This document shows, in pieces, positions 8,090-9,476 of a stretch of DNA of 64,000 nucleotides. The notes under the pieces were generated by a model. The model was not told the DNA's origin. It was given only the letters and a program-made list of their open reading frames with translations, and did no database searches. The first letter of the stretch is position 1, and every line of letters starts with the position of its first letter. The stretch comes from Octopus vulgaris (taxonomy: Eukaryota): assembly GCA_951406725.2 (NCBI GenBank), contig OX597822.1:47678001-47742000 (forward strand). Reading direction: 5' to 3'. The position numbers and the translations under genes were made by a program.

Positions 8090-8094
<5 letters not shown>

Positions 8095-8260
8095 GGATGT
8101 GTGTTAAAAAGCTTGCTTACCAACCAAATGGTTCCGGGTTCAAATCCCACTGTGTGGCACCTTGGACAAAGGTTTTCTACTGTAGCAATCAGGCCGATCA
8201 GATCCTTATGACTGGATTTGGTAGACGGAAACTGAAAGAAGCCTGTCCTATACATATACC

Positions 8261-8307
<47 letters not shown>

Positions 8308-8485
8308 TTGTCCCCCTACCATCGCTTGTCAATGTTGGCATATTTACGTCCCCGTACTCTAGTGGTTCGGCAAAAGAGACCGATAGAATAAGTACTAGGC
8401 TTACAAAGATTGATTTGTTCGACTAAAGGGCGGTGCTTTATCATGGCCGCAGTCAACTGACTGAAACAAGTGAAAGAAAAAAATA
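8090..8485 (+). mobile_element. SINE family A
   Basis: Head, CORE-like segment, internal TA/TG run and tail all match other copies. Confidence 0.9.
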
Positions 8486-8558
8486 AAAAGGAATATATAT
8501 ATATAATATATAAATATATATTCATATATGTGTACGTATATGTACATACACTTATACG

Positions 8559-8595
<37 letters not shown>

Positions 8596-8643
8596 TAGGA
8601 AGAAATGGAGCTGAACGAAGATTTAACAAAATTCCTTTTTATT

Positions 8644-8729
8644 ATTTTCTACATATGTTTCAAAGGCTGCAAAGTCCCTAATTCGGATTGAATAAGGAGT
8701 CCATTTTGCAGCCTTCTCTTCAGGAAAAT
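8644..8729 (-). ncRNA. Type I hammerhead ribozyme (mirror copy in the left palindrome arm)
   Basis: Reverse complement of 8973-9059; differs only in the distal part of stem II. Confidence 0.85.
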
Positions 8730-8972
8730 CCAGGAACTTAATTCTCCAACAAAATGCACAGCAAGCTTTTCGACAAACGCTCACGAGGAGCCCATGGAAT
8801 AAAAATTTTATTCCATGGGCTCCTCGTGAGCGTTTGTCGAAAAGCTTGCTGTGCATTTTGTTGGAGAATTAAGTTCCTGGATTTTCCTGAAGAGAAGGCT
8901 TATTCCATGGGCTCCTCGTGAGCGTTTGTCGAAAAGCTTGCTGTGCATTTTGTTGGAGAATTAAGTTCCTGG

Positions 8973-9059
8973 ATTTTCCTGAAGAGAAGGCTGCAAAATG
9001 GACTCCTTATTCAATCCGAATTAGGATACTTTGCAGCCTTTGAAACATATGTAGAAAAT
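8973..9059 (+). ncRNA. Type I hammerhead ribozyme with extended stem II
   Basis: ATTTTC [CTGAAGA] GAAGGCTGCAAA...TTTGCAGCCTTT [GAA] AC-ATAT-GT [A] GAAAAT: stem I 6 bp, stem II 12 bp plus an inner hairpin, palindromic stem III, GUA cleavage triplet (cut after 9053). Confidence 0.85.
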
Positions 9060-9266
9060 AATAAAAAGGAATTTTGTTAAATCTTCGTTCAGCTCCATTT
9101 CTTCCTATACTAAATATATAAAACTTCAAATTTCCGCACTAAGGCACGGAGTTTAGGCCCCATGGTCGTAACCTCAACCGTGCTTTTTCTGTTGTGATTT
9201 TTGCTACCCAGGTATCGGTTATCATTTGAATTATCCGTAATAAGATAATTCATTTATCTACTTCAA

Positions 9267-9330
<64 letters not shown>

Positions 9331-9332
<2 letters not shown>

Positions 9333-9476
9333 CATATGTGGGCACAGGACGTCTTGAAACATGTACAACAACAACAAAAAGTACGAGTACATGGAATGTG
9401 AACTTTTTTTCGAACAACGAAAGACACAAATGGAAAACAAGACAAACAACATAAAGAACGACCCTTCATCAGTTGC
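9331..9476 (-). mobile_element. TA-embedded fragment, probable Penelope-like pLTR remnant
   Basis: Unique GT-rich island between TA and CA runs, beginning CTGATGAAGGG on the minus strand. No complete HHR. Confidence 0.35.

Follow-up and report, generated by a model that had tools for sequence, protein, structure and literature searches.

The window analysed here, a stretch of 64,000 nucleotides from Octopus vulgaris, contains a large palindrome. A left arm of 214 bp (8591-8804) is mirrored around a single central base, A8805, and the inner pairing of 8710-8804 with 8806-8900 is 100% over 95 nt. Global alignment of the arms places an exact extra unit of 92 nt on the right side; over the rest of their length the arms are one substitution and one inserted base apart, both in the loop region of stem II of the hammerhead motif described below. 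The 214-bp arms with a 1-nt centre at 8805 and the 92-bp tandem duplication on the right side had been proposed in an earlier, sequence-only reading of this DNA, and both are confirmed. That reading placed the end of the insertion at 9112, which is wrong: it missed a one-sided tail, conserved in the family, that continues for ~158 bp more, to ~9270. The whole insertion sits in (TA)n, with (TA)14 on its left and (TA)29 on its right. The features are:

8565-8592, no strand: (TA)14 target tract, left flank, merging with the arm end.
8591-8803, minus strand: inverted pseudo-LTR (pLTR) arm; its outer end is the short end A (~+60 from the cut site) and its inner end lies at the 5′ hotspot.
8644-8729, minus strand: type I hammerhead motif, predicted cut between 8650 and 8649.
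8804-8806, no strand: junction of three bases, AAT, non-templated by the element.
8807-8899, plus strand: extra 92-bp unit of pLTR that begins at the 5′ hotspot and ends 7 nt into stem II.
8900-9112, plus strand: direct pLTR arm, beginning at the 5′ hotspot.
8973-9059, plus strand: type I hammerhead motif, predicted cut after 9053, G10.1·U11.1 closing pair.
9113-9270, plus strand: one-sided tail of ~150-160 bp, up to the long end B.
9271-9328, no strand: (TA)29 target tract, right flank.

The AAT junction likely represents extra A residues on both cDNA ends. The 92-bp unit contains the 5′ half of the hammerhead only, and its junction has a single occurrence in the assembly. Just inside the 5′ hotspot, at 8813-8831 and again at 8905-8923, CCATGG is followed by a hairpin of the GCTC-N5-GAGC type; this combination recurs in several subfamilies and is a candidate promoter or reverse transcriptase (RT) pause element. 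A crude ORF listing of the window, inspected by eye, held no recognisable host gene, at a resolution that small exons would escape. Immediately to the left of the insertion, at 8090-8480, is a common interspersed repeat, which we take to be an octopus SINE, and which also lies beside many copies of the family.

Judged by its sequence, the locus is the pLTR of a young Hydra-type Penelope-like element (PLE). The ORF for RT and the GIY-YIG endonuclease (EN) is present in related copies and not in the window; longer copies carry a 3′ UTR and this ORF upstream of the arm, and it is this linkage that bears out the suspected PLE pLTR origin. The order in full-length copies is pLTR, hammerhead, site A, tail, site B, ~50 nt and the ATG, with pLTR, tail and ATG contiguous in four loci (L132, L134, L138 and L169). 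Uninterrupted ORFs were found in three subfamilies, at L153 (900 aa), L157 (903 aa) and L169 (895 aa), the last two being 85% and 71% identical to that of L153. A young age had also been proposed, and is supported by the intact ORF of L153 and by a mean divergence of 1.9% between arms of different insertions. As in EN+ Penelope-like elements, the pLTR occurs in direct and/or inverted orientation with a tail at one end. A model of the 900-aa L153 protein (mean pLDDT 79) had telomerase RT as its top fold match (E 6.9e-9). When the C-terminal domain of this protein was folded alone, the best 11 fold matches were all GIY-YIG nucleases, at weak scores (best E 0.047), and the domain has the invariant Y, Y, G, R, H, E and N. 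The Pfam GIY-YIG model matched 6 of 60 aligned proteins, with the query itself unmatched; a Pfam search of the family's own ORFs returned nothing meaningful, and a PDB sequence search returned nothing. Among named homologs of the ORF, the one with the best score comes from Argonauta.

The Hydra clade of C-terminal EN+ PLEs was defined by Craig et al. (2021, PMC8557442). Inspection against that definition found the DKT motif, the CxxC and CxH motifs around E and N, and a C-terminal EN. The family thus shares with the clade a single ORF that joins RT to a C-terminal GIY-YIG domain (DKT; CxxC..E..N..CxH), a hammerhead in the 3′ region and insertion into (TA)n; 117 of 126 family ends abut TA-rich DNA. 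It differs from the clade in having RWL or RWF instead of RWK (among 120 homologs, 80 have RWK and 108 have RW), in the length of the ORF (~900 aa versus ~700 aa) and of the unit (~3.6 kb versus <3 kb), and in the linker, where an Asn/Ser-rich stretch of ~130 aa stands in place of CxCx5C. The CxCx5C pattern was found in 95 of 96 homologs with the EN end and is absent from all three intact ORFs; for this reason the family, whose placement is set by motifs, is referred to as “Hydra-type”, a derived lineage. Copies with these linker-less, Asn/Ser-rich ORFs (L153:974-3673, L157:2714-5422 and L169:971-3655) end in (TA)n, which argues against the idea that the linker directs targeting. Hydra-1_Obim, a member of the clade, appears by eye to be a different family and keeps CSCR..ECP. 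A Naiad identity was rejected because the EN is C-terminal.

An intact-looking type I hammerhead had been read on each strand of the palindrome. The hammerhead pattern matches both, with predicted cuts after 9053 on the plus strand and 8650 on the minus strand, and the predicted 3′ products begin at 9054(+) and 8649(−), as originally given; a pattern scan of the 64-kb window returned only these two matches, both in the palindrome. The match of the hammerhead model at 8644-8729 (−) holds by construction, as the model was built with the window's copy. The motif consists of stem I (ATTTTC/GAAAAT), CUGAAGA, a 12-bp stem II, GAAA, stem III (ACAUAUGU) and GUA. Stem II is closed in the window's copy by G·U and not by the usual G-C, a substitution on which the available text of PMC2837043 is silent. 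A 28-mer from the motif has at least 100 + 100 exact matches in the genome, compared with 0 + 0 for a reversed control, and this difference (at least 200 versus 0) indicates that the motif is not a chance occurrence. Rfam did not corroborate it, with no hammerhead match at the gathering threshold in the window or at E ≤ 10 in 8400-9400 (the miRNA matches in the window were generic hairpin matches below threshold), so the case for the motif rests on anatomy and covariation.

Covariation was assessed in an alignment of 12 rows, hand-picked to represent subfamilies, from which the right arm and one misaligned distant motif were omitted. The window's motif has the core CUGANGA, GAAA and UH with three helices; the 12 rows keep this core, with variation at N7 (A/U) and H17 (A/C), which are free positions of the hammerhead core. 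Across these rows, 88.8% of alignment cells are paired, a percentage reached by 0 of 500 shuffles and compared with 34-46% for slid controls, and 11 of 29 pairs changed on both sides. One pair of stem II is broken in 8 of 12 rows; the closing pair of this stem is G-C in 8 of 12 rows and G·U in the window's subfamily. The evidence is good but not clean, given the relatedness of the rows, a structure modelled on the window's copy and the broken stem II pair. With that reservation, the motif covaries across subfamilies. The dimer-type stem III noted earlier also stands: self-complementarity is kept in ACAUAUGU, ACAUGUGU and ACACGUGU, as would be expected for dimer-type cleavage. More distant hammerhead-like motifs with different stems were seen beside copies of the window's family (L167:670-762 and L163:5197-5291), and probably come from other families.

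The organization of the family was determined from 99 loci, 39 obtained by an arm search with extensions and 60 by a pattern search. These formed 90 groups, of which a single weak one was set aside; the remainder are 52 inverted pairs and 37 insertions with no partner visible in the retrieved DNA. The outer ends cluster at two positions: A, ~+60 from the cut site, and B, ~+215. Among the 52 inverted pairs, 49 are A/B, one is A/A (C4:11870467), two have an unclassifiable end and none is B/B. Once one local duplicate is removed, A/B accounts for 48 of 49 independent classifiable pairs (binomial p = 1.8e-13 versus 50%). Two further sets agree: nine of 20 loci around ORF starts show both outer ends, and all nine, from four subfamilies, are A/B by eye; 25 loci from a centre-pattern search comprised 23 chance matches and two family palindromes, both A/B. 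The total is 59 A/B among 60 classifiable inverted insertions. The arms have no shared sequence in 9 of 48 pairs, and the A arm reaches >25 nt further 5′ than the B arm in 20 of 48. Two of the loci, L032 and L037, look like one duplicated insertion, and at L101:4188-5423 a whole A/B insertion occurs twice, inverted, ~850 bp apart.

The inner, 5′ ends are also non-random. Of 44 unbiased ends within −300 to −77, 19 fall in the 18 nt from −160 to −143 (scan-corrected p = 0.0006 versus exponential decay; 19 of 59 ends overall). In five pairs, the window's included, both arms end at the same base, always at −154 to −159. Extra A/T residues are present at three −154 junctions, those of the window, C5:104801574 (A12/T9) and C7:123032033. 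The second of these (L105:2795-2815, G000:C5:104801574) is a perfect palindrome with its A12/T9 centre at the 5′ hotspot, and suggests reiterative A addition by RT. Fifteen copies with end A are truncated at −455 (L076, L084, L086, L088, L094, L106, L108, L114-L116, L122 and L125-L128) and were counted once in the 5′-end statistics; several share flanking matches and are therefore probably one insertion inside a larger repeat.

These data point to an origin of the palindrome as a 5′-truncated, head-to-head pLTR insertion into (TA)n, made by priming from both target strands at A and B, a reading to which we give a probability of about three in four. What is shown directly is that the insertion belongs to the family, that 3′ ends are fixed at two sites and pair with each other, that 5′ ends have a hotspot, and what the junction sequences are. 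Because A/B pairing is near-universal, the two cut strands are likely each to start at a different fixed point of the RNA. In the proposed mechanism, the RT/GIY-YIG protein, possibly as a dimer as modelled for the anole element, would cut both (TA)n strands, after which one target 3′-OH would start reverse transcription at A (~+60) and the other at B (~+215) of the element RNA. At the window's locus, both cDNAs would have run to a common stop at ~−154, possibly the RNA 5′ end, and gained an extra A; joining of the cDNA 3′ ends, bluntly or by 1-6 nt of microhomology, would then have produced the mirror. The extra 92 bp may stem from a second pass or from fold-back during end joining. The possible identity of the common stop with the RNA 5′ end is suggested by the extra A residues and by the sequence CCATTT, which resembles the initiator consensus. 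In 4 of 52 pairs and in both extra palindromes, some ends lie at −157 to −160, 2-5 nt beyond the A at −155 taken as the putative initiator; the stop may therefore reflect pausing of RT and not the start of the transcript.

Support for priming from both strands comes from work on an anole PLE, which cleaves and extends both strands and has its tail between two RT start sites (Frangieh 2024, PMC11167929). A paired priming, which extends the two start sites and the two-strand extension shown in vitro for that element, best explains the A/B pairing and the non-overlapping arms of the octopus insertions. The same study reported no start-site difference between the two strands in vitro, which counts against a paired use of A and B. 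Also to be set against paired priming are the one A/A pair, the 37 insertions without a partner in the DNA fetched, and a tail 4-5 times longer than the 30-40 bp described. A more general proposal, to which we give somewhat less than even odds, is that inverted PLE insertions arise by obligate twin-priming, in which one RT/EN dimer would always use A and B of the same RNA, palindromes like the window's would be the product of run-off at the RNA 5′ end, and the octopus lineage, with its sites ~155 nt apart, would target (TA)n without the linker zinc finger to which that role was assigned.

An unlikely alternative is fold-back, in which the cDNA or an antisense template snaps back, so that the inverted arm copies the first strand and ends at a TA-like A; self-priming with an antisense template was already proposed by Arkhipova et al. 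(2013, PMC3846280). Fold-back predicts near-symmetric 5′ ends, and the 5′ ends are within 15 nt in 15 of 49 pairs, compared with 5.2 expected by permutation, often lying 9-13 nt apart with short microhomology (2-6 nt); these pairs consequently count against paired priming. Arms of the same insertion are 1.2% apart, compared with 1.9% between insertions (n = 30, p = 6e-6), and have rare variants in common, such as a T that occurs in four arms out of 109, the window's two included; these similarities count in favour of paired priming, and the shared variants are also in line with fold-back. Such similarity could also come from gene conversion in the palindrome. In favour of fold-back, site A is followed by a TA-rich run that resembles the target. 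However, fold-back cannot give the 9 of 48 pairs with non-overlapping arms, for which it is excluded, nor the 20 of 48 in which A lies further 5′ than B, since in such pairs the one arm cannot have been copied from the other, in either direction. The self-priming of PMC3846280 is therefore in conflict with at least 20 of 48 pairs. At the window's locus, the 1-nt loop with A/T extras better fits two A-extended ends. Fold-back may nevertheless be the source of a subset of insertions, the 92-bp piece included.

The sequence-only reading had proposed a different kind of explanation, in which the palindrome is a selected self-processing or self-silencing unit with cleavage competing against a 200-bp hairpin. 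The layout supports its premise that the antisense arm is transcribed first in either direction; both motifs look intact, the family motif covaries, the hairpin would give long dsRNA, and small RNAs from Penelope copies have been reported in a rotifer (PMC3846280). The predicted energetics do not support a real competition. The hairpin is predicted at ~−400 kcal/mol, compared with ~−15 for the hammerhead-shaped fold, and minimum-energy folding did not produce the hammerhead core even from the isolated motif. Equilibrium pairing probabilities, which are not kinetics, are 0.12-0.14 for stem I pairs and 0.99-1.0 for stem II pairs when the motif stands alone; in a transcript prefix that includes the left arm and stops a little beyond the motif, the values for two pairs of stem I and two of stem II drop to 0.000. 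Each transcript would hold one complete sense hammerhead, so the dimer partner is missing, and the motif has a short stem III and a G·U closing pair. PLE hammerheads of metazoans showed no cleavage as monomers and low cleavage as dimers (Cervera and de la Peña 2014, PMC4209133), and the anole PLE hammerhead cleaved with protein only, its cleavage not being needed for insertion in vitro (PMC11167929). Nor is a two-ribozyme layout constant in the family: in many inverted insertions just one of the arms has a hammerhead, and arm length ranges from ~25 bp to >3 kb; for this reason the arrangement looks like an insertion by-product and not a selected unit. A selected unit is thus very improbable. 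The hammerhead would instead be a passenger here, being part of the full-length element, in which it would work as a dimer or assisted by protein. Any read-through RNA from the locus is predicted to fold into a long hairpin and thereby to trap the motif. If transcription of the locus occurs, dsRNA that serves as an ADAR or siRNA substrate is plausible, but as no more than a side effect. The palindrome is a real, stub-sized insertion in which a mobile element of known type has left the end that bears its ribozyme, and not a purpose-built RNA switch.

The least probable explanation, an assembly artefact, could draw on the exactness of the duplication, on the single occurrence of its junction in the assembly and on the failure of any of 32 contig pieces from four other runs to bridge either window junction (these runs hold at most half of the words of a family copy, and are therefore probably from other individuals or species), but the arms differ at two positions, their ends are different and family-typical, 60 similar insertions obey one rule, and for an inverted junction of the family there are bridging contigs from three independent studies. 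An artefact confined to the 92-bp duplication is quite unlikely, if less so than for the whole palindrome.

The bridging contigs, from runs presumed by a guessed label to be RNA, span an inverted junction between a pLTR arm and an ORF start (L132:1704 to 2030). Contigs of four presumed-RNA runs cover the pLTR and have an A>G excess, which is unreadable as editing without matched DNA. A 5′ UTR intron is not supported: a donor-like CAG|GT is present at 9211/9212, but the AG that could serve as its acceptor is not conserved in other subfamilies, and the pLTR contigs of these four runs contain no intron joint.

Among the closest parallels are inverted pLTR insertions with a one-sided tail, as in Pen2a/Pen2 of Adineta (PMC3846280; PMC8557442, legend to Fig. 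2), which share the head-to-head inverted 5′-truncated copy with a palindromic junction, the tail at one end only and an Asn-rich insert between RT and EN. Differences are the tail, ~150-160 bp in the octopus family versus 30-40 bp in described inverted pLTR insertions; the near-obligate inverted pairing, described as “optional” or “often” in PMC3846280 and PMC8557442; and the non-overlapping arms, which argue against the self-priming proposed for the Adineta elements. Like the PLE hammerheads of PMC4209133, those of the window are type I motifs in the pLTR with a long helix II and a short palindromic helix III, and dual opposite-strand motifs 100-700 bp apart were already reported there in Schistosoma. 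They differ from the published motifs in the G10.1·U11.1 pair of the window's subfamily, where G-C is conserved, and in having no bulged base after position 9 and a helix II of 12 bp that carries an extended inner hairpin. Poseidon of Anolis (PMC11167929) also has two internal RT start sites bracketing a tail, extension of both strands and an AT-rich target; its start sites are inside the ORF start and its hammerhead overlaps the ATG, whereas both octopus sites are upstream of the ATG, ~155 nt apart. The non-LTR retrozymes (bioRxiv 10.64898/2026.07.22.740005) share small type I hammerhead repeats related to PLE pLTRs. Their units follow one another head to tail, and each has its own motif; a retrozyme identity was rejected because the octopus locus is head-to-head and its 92-bp tandem unit contains the 5′ half of the motif only.

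Taken alone, the locus is transposon debris of a type already on record: inverted pLTRs, one-sided tails, opposite-strand hammerhead pairs and Hydra-type PLEs in octopus (PMC8557442) have all been reported. Within the literature searched, no account of paired priming was found, nor any 150-160 bp tail or linker-less Hydra-type lineage. How PLEs come to have inverted copies and a tail at one end only is named as an open question in PMC8557442, PMC3846280 and PMC11167929, and the portions of PMC11167929 consulted draw no link between the two start sites and the inverted copy. The one-A-one-B rule and the non-overlapping arms of the octopus family separate paired priming from self-priming, and the wide spacing between A and B, together with the intact L153 ORF, makes the family a convenient test case in vitro. 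The loss of the linker with targeting kept bears directly on the proposal that the linker directs (TA)n insertion.
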